64,000 nucleotides of DNA from Blastocatellia bacterium. Its GTDB lineage: Bacteria; Acidobacteriota; Blastocatellia; UBA7656. Shown piece by piece: positions 16,572 to 28,302 of this stretch. How positions within the stretch are numbered: position 1 is the first letter of the stretch; each line of letters opens with the position of its first letter. The position numbers and the translations under genes were made by a program. The notes below the pieces were generated by a model, which worked only from the letters and a program-made list of their open reading frames with translations, did no database searches and had not been told where the DNA came from. Where the stretch lies: positions 28,142 to 92,141 of the forward strand of contig DATNBZ010000164.1 in NCBI GenBank assembly GCA_035607285.1, given 5' to 3'.

Positions 16572-17993
16572 TCAATCAGGCGTCGTCACGTTCGGCGGTC
16601 TAACGAAAAGGCCCCAGACCACAAACTTCTCGGCGCCCAGGGTTCGGAACCCGATGCTGCCGGTGTGATATGTATCATCGCGGAGCTGTCCCAACGGCTT
16701 CTTCACACCGGGGTCTTCGTCGTCAAGATTGTCCGACGTAATCGTTTGGGTGATTAGATCGTTCGTCACATTAATATCGATATGATATTGGCCGCCGGCC
16801 TTGAGGGTCACAACCAGATTGTCGGCCTTTTTCTGAAGCTGCTTGCCGTCCCGAACCAGATATGTAAAGAAGGCGTTCTTATCATTCATCCCGCCCGGAC
16901 CCGAGAGGTAGAAGAGGTAATAGTTGTTGGGATCCTTGACGCGCAAAGCCCAGGCCGCTCCGCCATCGTTTATGAGCGTCAGATGAAACGACATATCGAA
17001 GTCCCCGACATTGACTTCGCGGGCGTAGCCTAAGATGGGCTCATTCTCGATCTGAAGTCTCTGCTTCGCAAAGCTCCACGATGAAGGCGCCTTCCACTGA
17101 TCCAGGCTCGTGAAGATCTCCGCGAATTCAGTTGTAGTAAGCGGCTTCTCAGCGGAAGGCGCAGGAGCAGGAGCAGGATTGGAAGTTAGAATCATGAAGC
17201 CGGCGATCCCCGCAACAGCGGCCAATACCGAGAGCACTGCGATTACCATGATTCTCTTTTTGCTTGTCGTCGCAGCAACCCGAGCCGCCGCCGCGGATAA
17301 AACGGGCGCCGCCGTGGCAACACCAACTGCCGCGGCGCTGGTTGTTGGCAGCGTGGCCGGGAACTCACAAGGCCGCTCGGGATTGCCCACTTCGCCTGTC
17401 CACAGGTTGAACAACTGAAGCCGCGCGCCGGGCGTCAACTCTCGCTCGCCGAGATCGTAAAGACACTTTGACCAGGTCCCAAGATGGTTCAACGTATCGG
17501 CGACGGATTTGGAGACAAGGATGTGACCGGCATCGCCGATCTCCATGATTCGCTGCGCGGTCTTGATTCCCTCACCCGATACGCTAGACCGGGCGTCGAT
17601 ACTGGTCATCCGGTAAACCGGCCCGCTGTGGATTCCGATTCGAACCTTCATCTCCGGATAGCTCTGAAGCGCGCGGCCAATTTCTGTTGCGCAGCGGGCC
17701 GGCGCAACCGGGTCCCCGAAAAACACAAGCGTCATGCCTTCATCGCCGGGCACGCTGATCAGTTGATCGCTTGATTGCCAGCGTCGAAACTCGACCGTCT
17801 CCGAGACAATTCTCATCAACCGTCCGAGAAGTCGGGTCTGTTGATCCATCGGCAGCTTTGAATAATCGACGATCTCGATCGACATCACGTGTGCGATCTC
17901 GAGCGCCGAGAGCGGCTGACTTTGCACCGGAGTTTGGGCTATTGCGGTCTGTCCGGCCGGCTCGCGCGGGCTCGGGTAAGCCGCGCTGGACAT
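16572..17993 (-). CDS. Membrane protein with an N-terminal cytoplasmic class-III nucleotidyl-cyclase homology domain (CHD) bearing non-canonical substitutions, one TM helix, and a C-terminal extracytoplasmic concanavalin/LamG-like jelly-roll domain.
   Basis: MSIEIVDYSKL...VPGDEGMTLVFFG...KVRIGIHSGPVYRM...GEGIKTAQRIMEIGDAGHILVS aligns with the adenylate/guanylate-cyclase CHD fold. It is followed by a Pro/Ala linker, the TM segment IMVIAVLSVLAAVAGIAGFMIL, and a WALRVKDPNNYYLFYL jelly-roll-like domain. Confidence 0.65.
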   Translation of the reverse strand: MSSAAYPSPREPAGQTAIAQTPVQSQPLSALEIAHVMSIEIVDYSKLPMDQQTRLLGRLMRIVSETVEFRRWQSSDQLISVPGDEGMTLVFFGDPVAPARCATEIGRALQSYPEMKVRIGIHSGPVYRMTSIDARSSVSGEGIKTAQRIMEIGDAGHILVSKSVADTLNHLGTWSKCLYDLGERELTPGARLQLFNLWTGEVGNPERPCEFPATLPTTSAAAVGVATAAPVLSAAAARVAATTSKKRIMVIAVLSVLAAVAGIAGFMILTSNPAPAPAPSAEKPLTTTEFAEIFTSLDQWKAPSSWSFAKQRLQIENEPILGYAREVNVGDFDMSFHLTLINDGGAAWALRVKDPNNYYLFYLSGPGGMNDKNAFFTYLVRDGKQLQKKADNLVVTLKAGGQYHIDINVTNDLITQTITSDNLDDEDPGVKKPLGQLRDDTYHTGSIGFRTLGAEKFVVWGLFVRPPNVTTPD

Positions 17994-18064
17994 TCGCGGG
18001 CCAACAATCTTTCCAGCCTTTGAACGACCCGCCGCACCCGGCTCGATTTCGTGCGGCGGGCCGG

Positions 18065-18520
18065 CTAAGGGTTTGCCGCCGCCTTGATCTTTCGCGCGAT
18101 GCTGACCAGCTCTTTGTTCAAGTCAGCGCCCTTCAGGCTGTCAAGAGGACGCGTCGGATCGTTTGCCGCCTGATACTTCGCAATGTCGGTCTCCTCATAC
18201 AGGCTCGCGCTGACCGCCACCCAGATGATCGTTGCCCCTTGCTGCTCCGCTGCTTCAAGAAGCGGCGGCAGCTCCTGCTCGACTATAAAATCGGAGGCGA
18301 GAAAATGCTGGCTGACCAGAAGCACCGCAACATTAGCCGAGGCGAGAGCCTTTTCGATCTCGTCTTTCCACTTCTCGCCGGTTCGGATTTGAGTGTCTGC
18401 CCAGACGTTGACGGTTCCCTGTCGCACGAGCGGAATCAAGGTGGTCTGGAGTCTTTCCAGCCATTTCTTGTCCTTGTGACTGTAGCTGATGAAGACCTGA
18501 TCGCGGGCCTGCTCAGGCAT
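18065..18520 (-). CDS. Stand-alone TIR-domain protein (about 150 aa).
   Basis: [16 protein letters not shown]...[14 protein letters not shown]...[21 protein letters not shown] is a canonical bacterial TIR (flavodoxin-like). The likely start is MPEQARDQ with RBS gaggt. The track ORF extends to 18622. Confidence 0.85.
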
Positions 18521-18637
18521 TTTTGTTACCTCTAGGCCGCGGATTGTACAGTCCAGGGTTAACCTGTGCAAGCATCGGCGTCTTGCGTTTTCGCGACCTG
18601 GTGAGATGCATAGCTTTCCCAATGCCTTTCACAACAT

Positions 18638-21600
18638 TTAGTTCTTCGAGAATGACTTGGCGACTTCCGCTGCGCGCTTCTCGATCGTTGTTTCCGGAGA
18701 TGTCAGTTGACGGTGGTACTGCAACCAGTCGCACGCTTCGCGTAGAAAGGTCTCGAGGCCGATGTGACGCAGCGACAGGGTCCCTGCCGAGTCGCCGCTG
18801 ACAAACGTCTTTCCATCGGGGCTAAAGGCGACCGATGTGATCCCGTCATTCCCTTTGAATGGATGTCCGATGGGTTTGCCATGCCGATCCCATAGCCGGA
18901 CCGTGCCATCCTCGGCGCCGCTGACGATCGTCTCGCCATCACTGCTAAAAGCGAGACAGCTTACGTTCTGTTCGTGTCCCTTAAATACGCGAATGGTCGC
19001 GCCCAGCCCATTCCAGAGGCGCATCATCCCGCTCTCACTGCCACTTGCAATGGTCTGTCCGTCGGGGCTCACGGCTACAGCTTCACCCTTTCCAGATGAA
19101 AAGGAGGCGCCCAATGGTGGAAAAACAGGTGAACCCTGCAGATTCCACCGCAGGACTTTCCCATCAGAACCGCCGCTAACGATCGTTTGCCCATTGAAGC
19201 TCACGGCGACGGACACGACGGGCCCGTCATGACCTCTCTCGGGTTGTCCGATGGGTCTGCCTTCCTGATCCCAGAGACGCACGGTCCCCTTCGCATCGCC
19301 GCTGACTATCATTTTCCCGTCGCCGCTTACGGCAATAGATGTTACTGGGGCGGTGTGATCACCACCGAAGGGCTGATCCCTGATCGCGTCTTGCTGATTC
19401 CGCAGCAGGAGCTTCCCATCGGCGCGCCCTATTACAAGGAGTTTGCCATCGGGTCCTAAAGCAGCAGTAGTCACTGTCGCATCCGTGACCTGCGCATCAG
19501 ACGAGCCGTTCGGAGCATTCCGGATTGGCGCTCCATCCCGATCCCACCGCAGTATTCGCCCGTCTGGGCCGGCCGTGACAATCGTCTGGCCATCGCCGCT
19601 AAAGAGCGCCGCCACGACCGGCCCAGCATTACCCTTGGAAGGCTCACTCTGTGTACGCTGCTCCCACAACCGCACCACGCCTCCGTCGCCGGTGCTGACA
19701 AAGGTCTTACCGTCGGCGCTCACGGCGACAGAATTGACGTTTCCCTCATGTCCTTCTAAGGGCCGCCCAATGGGTTTGCCCTGCCGATCCCAAACGCGCA
19801 CTGTCCCATCGGCGCCGCCGCTGACGATCGTTTGGCCTTCGGAGCTGACGGCGACAGTGTTGACTCTTCCACCGTGTCCCCTCAAGGGTTTCTCGGTAAT
19901 GGGCCTGCCCTGTCCGTCCCACAGGCGTACTGTCCCGTCATAACTGCCGCTGACAATCGTCTGTCCATTGGCGCTGATCGCGACACAACCCACTTCTGCG
20001 TCGTGCTTCTCAATCGTCTTCAATATGAGTTCGCCTTTTCGATTCCAGAGCCGCACTCTACCGTCAGCGCCGCCGCTGACTATGATCAGCCCATCGCGGC
20101 TCAAGGCGATGGTAGGGAGTTGCGTCGCCTCGACGCCAATCCATCTCTTGATCAACTTGCCGTTAGGTTCCGTGAGCCGAAGAGCGGAACCGTCGTAACT
20201 TAGAACGGTTTGACCATCGGAGCTCACGGCGACCGACGAGAACTTTCCCTCCGCAGCCAACTGGCCTGGGGCGCCGCCGCGCCGATCCCAAATTCGAACG
20301 CCGTCAGAGCCCACACTGACAATGGTCTGCCCATCAGGGGTCAAGGCAACAGACCTGACTCTGCCGCCATGGCCTTCCAAAGGTTCACCCTTCGGATTAC
20401 CGTGTCCATCCCAAACCCGGACCTTCTTGTCCCAGCCGCCGGTGACAATCGTCTGCCCGTCATCGCTCATCGCGACGGAAGTAACGATCTCTCCCTCATG
20501 TGCGAGCCAGGCATCGCGTTCTATGCTGCCCTCTCGAAGGAGTTGTAAGGCTTCAATAAAGCTGGACCGGATCTCGAGAGGGATGTCACCTGATGAGAAT
20601 TGCATTGCATCCGAGCTGCTTACAATGGCCGCAATCAGCCCTTCGGCAGGCTTGGTGGAAAGCAGATTCTTCGCTCCTACCGCGAGAGCGATGCTCGCTT
20701 GTTTCTGTGCGTCTCTCTTCGCCACCAATGCCCACACGAGAAGCCCTGCCAGAACCGCGAACACGAAAAGCGTAATCCCGGACCGCGTCAAACGCCTGCG
20801 CAAACGCGCGGCCCTGCTGTTCTTCAAAAAACCCATCGCGCCCATGAATTCGGGATGGTAGCGCCGCGCCCACACCTCGTTGGGCTGGTTGTGTTCCTGC
20901 CACTTCAACGCCACCTGCAAGTCCGGATCTTGCCAGAGCCCCGCCTGGCCTTCTGCATGCAGAACCGAGGTCTCCGCCAGGCGACTGTAAGTCTGCGCCG
21001 ACTCGGCTTCCTGATCCGCCCAGGTCTTCAATCGCTCCCACACGCGCATCAGGCTTTCGTGTGAGATGTCAATCACCGTCTCTGCCTGAAGCGCGTCCTC
21101 GGCTGGGGGCATCAAGAAGGAACGGCTCGGCTTGCGAAACACATCGATCACCTCCGTGACCTCAGCCAGCGTCGCATCCGCGAGGGCGCACAATGTGCCG
21201 AGAGTAGTGGGGCGCCGGACGCCCCGCGGGTCTGTCGCTTTGTCGGTCAGCGCCTTAAACAGCTTCTCGCAGATCTGACGCTGTCGCTCGGTCGTCAGTT
21301 CGGCATAAGCCTTCTCCGCATGCTGATTCAGCGCGTGGGCCATGGTGCCGATGGCCTCATACTGTGTCAGGGCCAGAACCCCGTCGCCTCGCCCCTCGCT
21401 TTGCCACCGCGCCCAGGTGCGATTCAATGCGTGCTGCAGAATCGATAGTTGGTCGGGGTTGTCGCCGACGTCGTTGACCAGACGAGTCAACAACACTGGA
21501 GAGATCTCGGCTCCTTCCACTCCAACAGGCCCACTGATGGCCGCGCGGCGTTCATCTCGAGTCATTCGGGGCACGAGGTATTGCCCCGCATTGATGGCCT

Positions 21601-22252
21601 CGGCCAAGCCGCGAAGCTGGGCGCAGTCGCCCAGAAAATCCGATCGCATGGTCAGGACGATGTAGATCGGGTATGACGTCTGCTCCTTTGCTTCCAGCAG
21701 CAGATTCACAAAAGCGGCGGCCTCTTCAGTAACGCCGTAGGAGTTCTCTTGCTGGCCTGCGCCCAATCGCCGGTAACGAAACAGCTCTTCAAACTGGTCC
21801 ACCACCACCAGCAGATTGACGTCCTTGTCCAACTGCGCTTGTTCGTAAATATCGATGAGTCCCAGGTTGCTCATCCGCAACGTGGTGTCGACGATTTCGG
21901 CGAGCGTCAAGCCCCCGGCTTGATAGTCGCGGAACAATACGCCGTCCTCGGCCAAAGCACGGGCCATCGCCCGCATTGGATCGCTGCCGGGGCGGAACTG
22001 GGCCATCCGCCACGCGGTGCCGGCGCTGGCCATCAATCCTCCGTGCAAGGCCGGCCGCAGCCCGCAGTTGACCAGGGAGCTTTTGCCGCTGCCCGACGTG
22101 CCGACCACCGCCAGGAAACGAGTGGCCGCCAGCTTATCGACCATCGCGTCGACCTGGTTCTCCCGGCCAAAGAATAAGTACTCCTCATCTTCTCGGAACG
22201 GCCTCAGCCCCGGAAACGGGTTCTTCGTAATTGCCATTGCAGCGGTGCTCAT
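18638..22252 (-). CDS. STAND-class P-loop NTPase (NACHT/AAA-like) with an array of more than 14 C-terminal WD40 repeats.
   Basis: N-terminus NPFPGLRPFREDEEYLFFGRE. Walker A AVVGTSGSGKSS and Walker B LLVVVDQFEELF. One TM-like segment is followed by repeated GHxxxVxSVAxSxDGQTIVSGGxDGTVRLWD WD40 units. The ATG (MSTAAM) overlaps the upstream TIR gene stop in an ATGA arrangement. Confidence 0.85.
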   Translation of the reverse strand: MSTAAMAITKNPFPGLRPFREDEEYLFFGRENQVDAMVDKLAATRFLAVVGTSGSGKSSLVNCGLRPALHGGLMASAGTAWRMAQFRPGSDPMRAMARALAEDGVLFRDYQAGGLTLAEIVDTTLRMSNLGLIDIYEQAQLDKDVNLLVVVDQFEELFRYRRLGAGQQENSYGVTEEAAAFVNLLLEAKEQTSYPIYIVLTMRSDFLGDCAQLRGLAEAINAGQYLVPRMTRDERRAAISGPVGVEGAEISPVLLTRLVNDVGDNPDQLSILQHALNRTWARWQSEGRGDGVLALTQYEAIGTMAHALNQHAEKAYAELTTERQRQICEKLFKALTDKATDPRGVRRPTTLGTLCALADATLAEVTEVIDVFRKPSRSFLMPPAEDALQAETVIDISHESLMRVWERLKTWADQEAESAQTYSRLAETSVLHAEGQAGLWQDPDLQVALKWQEHNQPNEVWARRYHPEFMGAMGFLKNSRAARLRRRLTRSGITLFVFAVLAGLLVWALVAKRDAQKQASIALAVGAKNLLSTKPAEGLIAAIVSSSDAMQFSSGDIPLEIRSSFIEALQLLREGSIERDAWLAHEGEIVTSVAMSDDGQTIVTGGWDKKVRVWDGHGNPKGEPLEGHGGRVRSVALTPDGQTIVSVGSDGVRIWDRRGGAPGQLAAEGKFSSVAVSSDGQTVLSYDGSALRLTEPNGKLIKRWIGVEATQLPTIALSRDGLIIVSGGADGRVRLWNRKGELILKTIEKHDAEVGCVAISANGQTIVSGSYDGTVRLWDGQGRPITEKPLRGHGGRVNTVAVSSEGQTIVSGGADGTVRVWDRQGKPIGRPLEGHEGNVNSVAVSADGKTFVSTGDGGVVRLWEQRTQSEPSKGNAGPVVAALFSGDGQTIVTAGPDGRILRWDRDGAPIRNAPNGSSDAQVTDATVTTAALGPDGKLLVIGRADGKLLLRNQQDAIRDQPFGGDHTAPVTSIAVSGDGKMIVSGDAKGTVRLWDQEGRPIGQPERGHDGPVVSVAVSFNGQTIVSGGSDGKVLRWNLQGSPVFPPLGASFSSGKGEAVAVSPDGQTIASGSESGMMRLWNGLGATIRVFKGHEQNVSCLAFSSDGETIVSGAEDGTVRLWDRHGKPIGHPFKGNDGITSVAFSPDGKTFVSGDSAGTLSLRHIGLETFLREACDWLQYHRQLTSPETTIEKRAAEVAKSFSKN

Positions 22253-23778
22253 CCTCTCGCTCCACACAAGGTCATGGCCTTCACAAATGCCGCCATCCGC
22301 GCCTCCGAAAAGTCTCCCAAGCCATTAATCAAGTTTGGTTCTTCCATATCGATCAGGTCTTCTTTGTCAGTTGTCGTGGGATCGGCCACGTACGTATAGC
22401 TGGCCAACAGGGGCTTCCCGCCGCGGTAGCCCGGCATCTTTTTAAGGTCATTGTCCATCGTGCGCTTCCATGCTTCATCGCCCGCGCCGTAAAAGAGAAT
22501 CACGGCGTCGGCGTTGGTCAGGTTCTGCTGGTGGGCCTCGCGCACCACGGCGGCGTCGCCCTCAAAGGCCGGGATGGCGACTTCGAAGCCCTGGCCCCGG
22601 CAAAACTTGCGTAGCGGAACCGTCGCTTTGCGATCCTTCTCATTGCAGATCAGGTAGATCAGCCTGGCGCTCTTCGCGGCGGAGGCTTGCTCGGCAGGCA
22701 ACTGAGGCTCAGGCCTTTCCAGTTTCTTTAGCGTAGCGTGGATCGAGGCTTTCAGATTCTCGAGGTCCCCCGTGATCAAGTCCGCTCCGACCTGGGCCTC
22801 GGCATTCTGGTGAAGCGCGTCGATAAACGCCTGCTGCTGCGCTTGCTGGGATCGCGTTCCGTCGGGCGCCCAGATCACGCGTTTCAATGGGTCGCTCTTG
22901 GCGTCGCTCTTGGCGTCGCTCTTGCTCAGCTTCGCCGCAAGCTCATTTTGCAGCACCACTACCGATTTTTGGCTCGGGCCATCGGGCACGGCGCCATAGC
23001 TGTCGCCGACCAGATGGATGGAAAGCTTGCAACGTTCGAGCAAGCGTTCGACCGCCGCCACATAGTCAGCTTCGTCGCGCGGCAACTGTTGATCCGGCAA
23101 AACGGTATAGCCGTGCCGTCGTAACTCGCCTTCCAGAATCTCCCTGGCCTGCTTCCGGTCATAACTGCATTCAGCCAAATAGACACCCGGTTTGGCCGCG
23201 GCTTGTAAGTCCTGACCGCTGTCGCCGTCGTCGGTCTCCAGCCTCTTTAGCAGTTGTGAGATATCCCACGCTAGTTTTCCGATCTTCCGGTTATAGTCCT
23301 GGGCGAACGTCTCTCCGTAAGCCGAATCAAGTTCCAGCGGCGCCCCGTCTTCGAACGCGAAAAACTCATAACCCAGGACGTTTTTCATCACAGTTGGCAG
23401 CGACTCCTGCGTGTCCACCGGCGCTTTCAGCACCTTGAAGACTCTGGCTTTGTTATCGACCACAATCCCGCCGTTCCGTTCCGCGCTCTTGCAGAATTCA
23501 GATACTTCCTTGTTGCACCAGACGGAATTGAGATAGCGAGGAGTCAGCACCGAAACGAGTACAGCGGTATGCTCGAATTGTTCGACGATTTCGTCGGCAA
23601 AGACATCGTTCCCTTGGAGTTTATTGTCTCTCCAAATTCGGACCTTGCCTCCCCTGCGCATGCTCAGGATCGCCTCCAGCGACATATGAAAGCGAGTGAT
23701 CCACCCCTTTTGTTCGGGCGTTAACGGCAGGTTGTCGATATGAGCGTAGCTGATGAATATGTCTTCTTTATACCTCAT
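22249..23778 (-). CDS. Multi-domain TIR protein: an N-terminal TIR with an intact SxWCxxE catalytic-type motif plus one to two further TIR-like/flavodoxin-like domains, separated by a short SKSDAK repeat.
   Basis: DIFISYAHIDN...RIWRDN...VLVSVLTPRYLNSVWCNKEVSEF (TIR). A second block is VYLAECSYDRKQAREIL...SIHLVGDSYG. A third is LIYLICNEKDRKATVPLRKF...AVILFYGAGDEAWKR. An RBS gggagg precedes the ATG. Confidence 0.75.
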   Translation of the reverse strand: MRYKEDIFISYAHIDNLPLTPEQKGWITRFHMSLEAILSMRRGGKVRIWRDNKLQGNDVFADEIVEQFEHTAVLVSVLTPRYLNSVWCNKEVSEFCKSAERNGGIVVDNKARVFKVLKAPVDTQESLPTVMKNVLGYEFFAFEDGAPLELDSAYGETFAQDYNRKIGKLAWDISQLLKRLETDDGDSGQDLQAAAKPGVYLAECSYDRKQAREILEGELRRHGYTVLPDQQLPRDEADYVAAVERLLERCKLSIHLVGDSYGAVPDGPSQKSVVVLQNELAAKLSKSDAKSDAKSDPLKRVIWAPDGTRSQQAQQQAFIDALHQNAEAQVGADLITGDLENLKASIHATLKKLERPEPQLPAEQASAAKSARLIYLICNEKDRKATVPLRKFCRGQGFEVAIPAFEGDAAVVREAHQQNLTNADAVILFYGAGDEAWKRTMDNDLKKMPGYRGGKPLLASYTYVADPTTTDKEDLIDMEEPNLINGLGDFSEARMAAFVKAMTLCGARG

Positions 23779-23945: not shown

Positions 23946-24060
23946 TGAACAGTCATGTAGGGGCGGCCCTCCGTGGCCGCCCCTCTTGTCGATTATCCAA
24001 GGCGTGCGCAGAACGAAAAGAGGGGCGGCCACGGAGGGCCGCCCCTACATGAACTGTTCA
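23946..24060. repeat. Family-B palindromic repeat element, copy B1, between the TIR-operon promoter and the gyrB 3' end.
   Basis: tgaacagtcatgtaggggcggccctccgtggccgcccctc ... gaggggcggccacggagggccgcccctacatgaactgttca are near-perfect arms. Confidence 0.85.
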
Positions 24061-24071
24061 ACAGAGAAGAA

Positions 24072-27700
<3,629 letters not shown>

Positions 27701-27785
27701 TTTCAGATCTTAACATTCGAACGCAGGAACATGTCAGTCAGGTAGTGGGGTAATAGTGTGTTGCTCGCTCACATTCGCGTTTCTC

Positions 27786-27868
27786 CTCTGCGTCCTCGGC
27801 GTCCTCTGCGGTTGATTCCGAGCCACTGAGCAGGAAAAACCGCGGAGGACGCCGTGGACGCAGAGGAC
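27786..27868. repeat. GC-rich imperfect palindrome upstream of recF.
   Basis: ctctgcgtcctcggcgtcctctgcgg ... ccgcggaggacgccgtggacgcagagg. Confidence 0.5.
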
Positions 27869-28006
27869 TGCTTGCTGGCAACACGCCAATATCTCACTAC
27901 CGTCAGTCAAGGGCGTCGCGCTCAAAATCCGGGCGTTTGTTTGACAATAAATCATCGCTGATATAGTTTTGGTCCGCCTCAGGAGAATGCCTGAGCGAGC
28001 AGGATC

Positions 28007-28258
28007 GTGGAGCAGCAAATCAGAATAGAAATCAAAGGCAAAGACGAGTTCTGGGAGCGGGCTTTTCACGTGGAGTGGGAACACCAGTTTCCCGATCGAG
28101 CCTTGACGGCGAGTGGCGGTGGACAGTTCATCGCCGGCGGCGAATGGTTCGACGATATGGAACGCGTGGCCGCCCAGACTTTTTGCAGAATCGTGCGCGC
28201 CCCTGAGAATCCGCAACGAAGACGATGGATGAATTCACTCATTCCCCGGCGTAGTTGA
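28007..28258 (+). CDS. Small hypothetical protein (83 aa, GTG start).
   Basis: The ORF has protein-like composition (EFWERAFHVEWEHQFPDRALTASGGGQFIAGGEWFDDMERV). There is no family call and the RBS is weak. Confidence 0.3.
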   Translation: MEQQIRIEIKGKDEFWERAFHVEWEHQFPDRALTASGGGQFIAGGEWFDDMERVAAQTFCRIVRAPENPQRRRWMNSLIPRRS

Positions 28259-28302
28259 CGAATTGACTGATTCCTATGAATTGAGACTGTAGTGGAGACT
28301 CG

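Follow-up and report, generated by a model that had tools for sequence, protein, structure and literature searches.

The 64,000-nucleotide stretch of a Blastocatellia bacterium contig analysed here (DATNBZ010000164.1; hereafter the window) carries, with gyrB and recF directly upstream, four genes on the minus strand, P1 to P4, which a preliminary description had read as one co-directional operon resembling an NLR-like conflict system. The next two minus-strand genes downstream are designated P5 and P6. The locus is probably a composite of two independent membrane-receptor modules with TIR domains, which became adjacent through a lineage-specific deletion. Module A consists of P1 and P2 and is interpreted from its sequence as an NLR-like conflict or immunity pair; module B, which would represent an envelope-spanning sensory cassette specific to Blastocatellia, comprises P3 and P4 together with the downstream P5 (an FG-GAP protein) and P6 (an outer-membrane protein, OMP).

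Conservation of the gene pairs and the P2-P3 junction

All four open reading frames (ORFs) reported previously were found intact. With P1 as the query, the metagenome scan gave 80 loci (53-94% identity), in which a P2-type NTPase (66-92% identity) follows P1 wherever the DNA continues past it. The 4-nt start/stop overlap of the two genes, described before as an ATGA arrangement and present in the window as GGATGAGC with GAGAGG before it, recurs in 55 of 68 homologous junctions, and P1 and P2 are predicted to be translationally coupled. The separate P3-type TIR, the class-III cyclase-homology domain (CHD) of P4, the P4 C-terminal domain, P5 and P6 were absent from all 80 loci, 39 of which extend at least 1.5 kb upstream and 11 at least 1.5 kb downstream. 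The scan of GTDB species genomes with the P4 alignment produced 79 loci, and only two of them carry P1 or P2: both genes in L006 and P1 at the contig end in L005. In the loci having the P4 C-terminal domain only, neither P1 nor P2 was present within 10 kb. The view of the four genes as one system with a conserved operon was not supported by these counts.

The comparison with related contigs suggested how the adjacency in the window arose. In L164 and L165 (P1 at 91% identity) the synteny runs from recF-gyrB through P1-P2, and this pair (P1A-P2A) is followed by a fragment of a SLATT gene, a second paralogous pair P1B-P2B (41 and 52% identity) and a SLATT gene. In L166 and L167 (P4 at 90 and 68% identity) a divergent SLATT gene stands immediately before the TIR-P4-FG-GAP-OMP genes, while pair B, SLATT and TIR-P4 are found together on single contigs in L006 and in the contig of P0010. 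The modules are separated in these relatives by an opposite-strand SLATT gene and a divergent promoter region of ~300 nt. The window DNA matches L164 to ~10 nt past the P2 stop, which places the breakpoint within ~15 nt of the stop, and matches L166/L167 from ~100 nt before the P3 ATG, within the SLATT-TIR intergenic region; nothing in the relatives corresponds to the ~14 nt that follow the P2 stop. Since P1B-P2B and the SLATT genes occupy the place between P2 and P3 in the relatives, the tight junction in the window appears to be a lineage-specific deletion junction, the simplest reading being a loss of ~6.5 kb that included the SLATT fragment, pair B and the SLATT gene. No SLATT gene is present in the window, all the copies seen in the relatives having been lost. 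Decaying remnants left after the deletion were rejected as an explanation, because every ORF is intact and purifying selection acts on the four genes, whose ratios of nonsynonymous to synonymous substitution rates (dN/dS) are 0.06-0.21.

The previously given P2-P3 distance of 15 nt applies solely to the longest P3 ORF, starting from TTG at 18622. All relatives share the start at the ATG of position 18520, which GAGG precedes by 8 nt; counted from this ATG, the gap is 117 nt, while the 71 nt given for the P3-P4 gap were confirmed. The P2-P3 spacer includes a promoter-like TGCACA-16-TACAAT at 18570-18543; as the 100-nt block with the invariant TACAAT and GAGG was retained, P3 probably has its own promoter. 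Tight junctions in a single genome are not evidence of a system; one of them probably arose here by deletion.

P1-P2 as a candidate immune pair

The profile searches confirmed the domain assignments of the preliminary description (TIR_2, nSTAND1, WD40 and a partial Guanylate_cyc). P1, a soluble protein of three domains which had been called a multi-TIR protein, fits this name approximately: it has a TIR_2 match (E 1.7e-13) and a DUF4062 match (PF13271; aa 199-274, E 9e-6) just above the cut-off (26.2 against 24.7 bits; 27.4 bits in the type-B paralog), and its third unit is weakly similar to the second (hhalign E 8e-4). No similarity of the TIR domain to either domain 2 or domain 3 was detected by hhalign, and phmmer with domains 2-3 against PDB sequences gave no match. 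In the TIR motif S85-x-W-C-x-x-E91, the final Glu is aligned to the catalytic Glu of RUN1 (WCLDE) and, in the entry of the RUN1 mutant E100A, to the Ala. The position of E91 is Glu in 74 of 75 representatives of the P1 family (≤50% identity), so that P1 has the catalytic Glu of TIR NADases and is predicted to be active as an NADase.

The second domain appears to be different in this respect. DUF4062, also termed NIR, is reported in 2026 preprints to be a TIR-like NADase domain with a catalytic Glu, which occurs in Swarozyc, Evangelion, Vulcan, Vesta and TEP1 and has the catalytic motif 'SYT..E-Y' (bioRxiv 10.64898/2026.06.25.731849). The corresponding stretch in the P1 family is S272-x-x-(V/E)-L-Q277-N278, which reads S272-V-V-V-L-Q277-N278 in the window copy. 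Q277 is invariant in 73 of the 75 representatives and is kept in a Caballeronia homolog at 25% identity, while E279 is present in just 41 of the 75. We infer that Gln substitutes here for the catalytic Glu, by which the NIR-like domain of P1 would bind a ligand but not cleave it, a role in ligand binding or regulation being more likely than one in hydrolysis. The invariant Gln suggests that a just-described NADase fold was turned into a non-catalytic domain. The middle domain of P1 has 1361 representatives at E ≤ 1e-3 (clusters at 50% identity), mostly in proteins of ~500 aa with the same layout, and the P1/P2-type family was found in Acidobacteriota, Planctomycetota and on one Betaproteobacterial plasmid.

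P2 matched nSTAND1 (PF20703) with an E-value of 1e-93 (315.5 bits against a cut-off of 27.1), a clade defined in predicted counter-invader systems (PMC8195603), and its translation includes the Walker motifs GTSGSGKSS and LLVVVDQFEE. It has 11 WD40 repeats by Pfam, which match TEP1 beta-propeller models; the PADLOC matches were HEAT-ARM_XIII, over the WD40 part only, and marginal mad3/mad8. A feature missed previously is a transmembrane (TM) helix: immediately after the NTPase, 40 of 46 P2 homologs have a strongly hydrophobic segment of 19-25 residues that is Arg-rich on its N-terminal side, and the diverged type-B paralogs and the Caballeronia homolog have such a segment too. Its hydrophobic character is conserved and the sequence itself is not. 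By prediction, P2 is a bitopic inner-membrane protein with nSTAND1 on the N-terminal side of the helix. Because P2 has no signal peptide and its N-terminal domain is ATP-dependent, the region after the helix should be periplasmic, and the WD40 sensor probably faces the periplasm. Across the P2 homologs this region is made of WD40, TPR or pentapeptide repeats, FGE-sulfatase, or no recognisable domain. Such a swappable sensor on a constant effector/NTPase chassis is typical of immune receptors, and the NLR-like conflict reading proposed earlier for the whole operon fits this strictly conserved pair of a TIR effector and a STAND protein with a hyper-variable sensor.

Frequent companions are SLATT_1/DUF4231 genes, predicted as nucleotide-responsive pore-forming effectors (PMC7159879), which flank the P1-P2 pairs in at least 12 loci; one SLATT copy among the relatives is truncated. 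The order in the plasmid pSBC2-4 of Caballeronia sp. SBC2 is DUF4231 protein, P1-like TIR protein and nSTAND1-TM-propeller protein. A 588-aa protein with TPR-S and Guanylate_cyc domains is encoded 3 kb from this triad (L168, 512-2278, minus strand), a second instance of a cyclase-domain gene close to such a TIR/STAND pair, which may be a coincidence or belong to a conflict island. One SLATT protein (L145, 3405-4400) has an extra N-terminal domain of ~190 aa starting with MKIPVFVSCP and without a Pfam match, which may be a sensor for a TIR-derived signal. In 8 P1-P2 loci (e.g., L092, 1905-2993) a same-strand gene upstream of P1 encodes a member of a protein family of ~350 aa, also without a Pfam match, which may be an extra component in one sub-clade. 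The gene contexts differ between loci and tandem paralogous pairs occur. In L108 and L110 the pair adjoins rsmG-parA-parB upstream of P1, another usually origin-proximal context.

That module A would instead serve developmental or envelope-stress signalling of soil bacteria, with the TIR products acting as second messengers without killing, is an unlikely alternative, albeit one with several points in its favor: the pair is chromosomal and near housekeeping genes (gyrB here, rsmG-parA-parB in the two loci above), no P1 homologs were found in phage genomes and plasmid copies are rare, the conservation of the NTPase mentioned above is unusually high for a defence gene, and bacteria with complex lifestyles are rich in STAND/WD40 proteins (PMC7159879). 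It is opposed by the sensor swapping on a constant chassis, the tandem paralogous pairs, the frequent pore-type SLATT partners and the variable gene contexts.

The predicted P3-P4 receptor and its outer-membrane cassette

TIR_2 (E 1.7e-17) is the sole Pfam domain of P3, and its PADLOC match was ThsB1 (E 3e-20). Its Glu aligns with that of AbTir and PdTIR and is kept in 15 of 16 P3-type TIR domains, so that P3, as already P1, has the catalytic Glu that had been named as a check of the earlier reading, and NADase activity is predicted for it as well. The sole exception of the 16 is the first TIR, with Ala for Glu, of a TIR-Ser/Thr kinase-TM-lectin fusion (L059, 8366-10591).

P4 showed a partial match to Guanylate_cyc (E 1e-5), a single TM helix and, at its C-terminus, a beta-sandwich, and the AlphaFold model has two confident domains with a hydrophobic helix between them. 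By Foldseek, the N-terminal domain resembles the class-III CHDs Rv1900c and Ma1120 (target-normalised TM-score ~0.68; phmmer E 6e-5) and the C-terminal domain the CBM66/ConA-like lectin beta-sandwiches (4b1m, E 5e-9, target TM-score 0.76). This gives the predicted order of a cytoplasmic CHD, a TM helix and a periplasmic lectin-like domain. The catalytic positions are E40, E85, K144 and R148 against D, D, N and R in the wider family (120 homologs): the first metal Asp and the TGDG Asp are each replaced by Glu and the transition-state Asn by Lys, so that three of the four positions diverged. At the purine-specifying Lys/Asp (or Glu/Cys) positions P4 has Ser and Ser. Judged from these residues, the cyclase domain is probably regulatory or non-canonical.

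The unity of module B is evident from its relatives. TIR-CHD-TM-lectin is a single ORF in L001-L004, L006 and L007, where a P3-type TIR forms the N-terminal part of the P4 protein, as it does in the P4 homologs P0012 and P0014; by this comparison, P3 and P4 of the window are the split products of one protein. Downstream DNA was sufficient at 33 loci, and in 31 of them a gene on the same strand, no more than 2.5 kb after the P4 C-terminal domain, encodes a P6-like OMP (26 loci) or a P5-like FG-GAP protein (5 loci); these include metagenome-assembled genomes labelled Blastocatellia, Pyrinomonadaceae and Chloracidobacterium. This linkage means that P4 belongs with genes outside the previously described coordinates, P5 and P6 having been overlooked as partners of P3/P4. 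The variable part is N-terminal of the TM helix and consists, by Pfam, of nothing, a Ser/Thr kinase, TIR-kinase, TIR, kinase-CHD or TIR-CHD, the first variant being a signal anchor with CarboxypepD_reg and PEGA. The alternative of a signalling module, mentioned in the preliminary description for the entire operon, is reasonable for P3-P4.

In Acidobacteriota the CHD family has been recombined very widely, its partners being kinase, TPR, TolB-like, FGE-sulfatase and TIR+AAA_35, and a 2393-aa ORF with a P4-type CHD (L027, 4714-11895) adjoins a second CHD protein of 994 aa. The window itself has two more large ORFs with 22-27% identity to P6 (4347-7946 and 37187-40192, both on the plus strand), which are paralogous CarboxypepD_reg-type OMPs without a P4-like partner.

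Several points weigh against the two-module interpretation and its details. Downstream of P2, the available DNA reaches 1.5 kb or more at just 11 of the 80 P1-P2 loci. As L164 and L166 are separate contigs, the 'deletion' could also be an insertion in the relatives, and the continuity of P2B-SLATT-P3 rests on L006 and the P0010 contig, because the single close-relative contig L085 matches L166 after SLATT for ~95 nt and then diverges. No terminator was found between P2 and P3, making read-through co-transcription possible in the window genome. P1-P2 is near TIR-P4 in at least four related Blastocatellia contigs: the window with a type A pair, L006 and the P0010 contig with type B, and L005 with a different position. 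On the level of the proteins, the TM helices and the topology of P2 and P4 were derived from hydropathy only, Q277 was placed at the DUF4062 catalytic position by our own alignment to the published motif alone, and the P1 structure model was poor (pLDDT, the predicted local distance difference test score, of 56), with generic TIR folds only from Foldseek, which makes the assignment of domains 2 and 3 tentative.

A functional link or a variable island in common may underlie the recurrent adjacency, but shared ancestry explains it equally well. If the link is functional, the four genes, or six when P5 and P6 are counted, would make one integrated system, in which the two periplasm-facing receptors P2 and P4 converge through P1-P3 TIR-TIR interactions or shared NAD-derived messengers. 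We consider this improbable. It would agree with the adjacency of two paralog types in two positions, with the external sensor, TM helix and cytoplasmic TIR common to both modules, with the missing terminator and with the TPR-S-cyclase gene near the Caballeronia triad; however, the empty result for module B genes in the 80 P1-P2 loci, the single P4 locus with both P1 and P2, and the opposite-strand SLATT gene with its divergent promoter region between the modules in relatives all speak against it, and synteny by descent explains the adjacency, since all the co-locating contigs are related Blastocatellia.

Still less probable is a Pycsar-like action of P3-P4, in which P4 would make a cyclic nucleotide, possibly a pyrimidine one, on periplasmic stimulation and thereby activate the P3 TIR NADase: the cyclase-homology fold was confirmed, TIR and CHD are fused in relatives, P3 has a weak CAP12/PCTIR_TIR match (E 0.004) and P4 is without the purine-specifying Lys and Asp, as are the pyrimidine cyclases, but P3 is a bare 151-aa TIR without a cyclic nucleotide-binding domain, the PADLOC Pycsar models gave no match, the P4 subfamily has Glu, Glu and Lys against Asp, Asp and Asn in the wider family, and the CHD is dispensable in the sister architectures TIR-TM-lectin and kinase-TM-lectin.

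Gene layout, proposed mechanism and comparison with known systems

The features of the locus are listed in the table. P2 was counted from the ATG within the overlap, while its longest ORF starts at a GTG five codons 5' of this ATG. Between gyrB and P1, a terminator-like element and a promoter-like site are located; the former has two 39-nt arms, 97% complementary, each of which is itself a GC-rich palindrome/hairpin (AGGGGCGGCC...GGCCGCCCCT), and could be a bidirectional terminator or an element of the repetitive extragenic palindromic (REP) type. The Rfam scan of the whole window gave no matches. The earlier designation as an origin region found no support in gene content or DnaA boxes: the window has no dnaA or dnaN and no DnaA-box enrichment (6 found, 6.4 expected). 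The cumulative GC skew is minimal at ~24000-28300 and the gene orientation flips from minus to plus at about 28 kb.

Table. Positions of genes, domains and other features in the window and of SLATT genes in related loci
Feature	Position	Strand	Description
P1	22249-23778	-	509 aa
P1 TIR domain	23224-23778	-	aa 1-185; catalytic Glu E91
P1 DUF4062/NIR-like domain	22714-23208	-	aa ~191-355; Q277-N278 at the expected E-Y catalytic site
P1 third copy	22252-22713	-	aa 356-509; degenerate
P2	18638-22252	-	1204 aa, from ATG within the ATGA overlap
P2 nSTAND1 NTPase	20966-22219	-	aa 12-429
P2 TM helix	20708-20782	-	aa ~491-515; predicted; between nSTAND1 NTPase and WD40 array
P2 WD40 array	18773-20491	-	aa ~588-1160
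P2-P3 spacer	18521-18637	-	117 nt; promoter-like block and GAGG ribosome-binding site
P3	18065-18520	-	151-aa stand-alone TIR; catalytic Glu in VEQEL
P4	16572-17993	-	473 aa
P4 class-III CHD	17478-17906	-	aa 30-172; E40, E85, K144 at catalytic positions
P4 TM helix	17184-17258	-	aa ~246-270; predicted
P4 CBM66/ConA-like beta-sandwich	16584-17102	-	aa 298-470; predicted periplasmic
P5	12721-16329	-	1202-aa FG-GAP/beta-helix protein; N-terminal signal anchor; in conserved cassette 3' of P4
P6	8691-12686	-	1331-aa OMP; CarboxypepD_reg and OMP_b-brl_4 (E 3e-153)
gyrB	24072-26501	-	housekeeping context, outside both modules
recF	26534-27700	-	housekeeping context, outside both modules
Terminator-like element after gyrB	23953-24052	unspecified	upstream boundary of module A
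Promoter-like site 5' of P1	23870-23897	-	TTGCAA-16-TAGAAT; consensus match only; number of matches in the region equals the shuffle expectation
SLATT genes in L164/L165	15270-15641 and 21497-		
SLATT gene in L166	74-526		
SLATT gene in L167	156-608		
SLATT genes in L006	481-1092 and 8692-9142		

Both modules have in common a membrane receptor with a cytoplasmic TIR, and the steps proposed here beyond domains, conservation and predicted topology are inferential. In module A, the WD40 array of P2 would sense an extracytoplasmic ligand or an envelope perturbation, followed by an NTP-dependent oligomerisation of P2 at the membrane, and the oligomer would cluster the P1 TIR domains into active NADase sites, resulting in NAD+ depletion and/or an NAD-derived signal. 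In the loci encoding SLATT, a protein with two TM helices, this signal may open the SLATT pore. In module B, the lectin domain of P4, genetically coupled to the CarboxypepD_reg barrel with or without the FG-GAP protein, would be wired inward through its single TM helix and relay the presence of a ligand or the state of the OMP, resembling FecR/TonB-transducer signalling or a Toll-like receptor, the CHD serving mainly for dimerisation or regulation and the TIR providing the enzymatic output.

A wider generalisation is put forward as tentative, its being correct in full rather doubtful: P2 and its ~1000 relatives may be STAND pattern-recognition receptors with the sensor outside the cytoplasm, which fire a cytoplasmic TIR response with or without a SLATT pore, and the TIR-(CHD/kinase)-TM-lectin proteins may be a second family shaped as Toll-like receptors. 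The characterised bacterial NLR-like defences, such as Avs and bNACHT, sense phage proteins in the cytoplasm. If the generalisation is true, an invader or antagonist would be detected at the envelope, before or without its entry into the cytoplasm, and a family of TM STAND NTPases with a swappable post-TM sensor would extend the NLR-type sensing to the periplasm, making the P1-P2 family a testable model of outside-in immune signalling in bacteria. In module B, the interchange of TIR with a Ser/Thr kinase as the cytoplasmic output of an OMP-coupled receptor is reminiscent of Toll-like receptors.

In line with the preliminary description, no described system was matched (PADLOC-DB v2). The PADLOC, NCBIfam and Pfam scans of P1-P4 produced generic TIR/ThsB-like and WD40 matches only, with all the NCBIfam matches below threshold (e.g., a weak FxsC_Nterm match with 44.9 bits against a cut-off of 130), and no description of a transmembrane STAND protein with TIR and a periplasmic sensor was found in the literature. 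Avs/bNACHT proteins, including NIR(DUF4062)-Avs2 (bioRxiv 10.64898/2026.09.04.749371), share with module A the STAND NTPase, C-terminal repeat sensors, a TIR or TIR-like NADase effector, and the combination of a variable sensor with a constant core. However, they are single polypeptides, while the effector of module A is the separate, coupled P1 with three TIR-like domains; furthermore, the module A NTPase belongs to the nSTAND1 clade and has a TM helix before the sensor, its NIR-like domain has Gln, and there was no PADLOC model match. The nSTAND1 counter-invader systems predicted in multicellular bacteria have an NTPase of the same clade (Kaur et al., 2020, PMC7159879; 2021, PMC8195603), and TIR effectors and SLATT partners recur in them. 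Module A differs in the absence of detected EAD and bacterial Death-like adaptor domains, and neither a TIR-NIR-NIR partner nor the layout of a TM helix with an external sensor was found described in these two papers. In human TEP1/NWD1 (NIR-NACHT-WD40) a DUF4062-type domain, a STAND NTPase and WD40 propellers are likewise combined, but in module A the parts are distributed over two proteins, the NTPase is nSTAND1 and not NACHT, and a canonical TIR and a TM helix are extra; besides, by our alignment, TEP1 has the catalytic Glu where the NIR-like domain of P1 has Gln.

The Pycsar and CBASS precedents invoked previously did not hold for P3-P4. With Pycsar they share the genetic linkage of a TIR protein to a class-III-like cyclase fold, in contrast to which P3 has no cyclic nucleotide-binding domain, the catalytic residues of P4 diverged (both metal sites and the Asn), and P4 is of a receptor type tied to an OMP gene. 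For CBASS, a CD-NTase (cGAS/DncV-like) domain was not found in P1-P4 by Pfam, NCBIfam and PADLOC. Thoeris has in common with P3 the ThsB-type TIR with a catalytic Glu, but the locus has no ThsA gene (SIR2 or Macro-SLOG), and the P3-type TIR of relatives is joined to a membrane receptor. P4 is similar to receptor-type class III adenylyl cyclases in having an extracytoplasmic ligand-binding domain, a single TM helix and a cytoplasmic signalling domain. The genetic coupling to an outer-membrane barrel is comparable to FecA-FecR, an analogy which is topological only: unlike FecR/TonB-dependent transducers, module B has no extracytoplasmic function (ECF) sigma/anti-sigma domain, P4 has no FecR domain and P6 no Plug match. 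Finally, module B follows Toll-like receptors in the order of external domain, TM helix and TIR, although its sensor is a CBM66-like lectin and not a leucine-rich repeat domain, and its TIR keeps the enzyme-type Glu.

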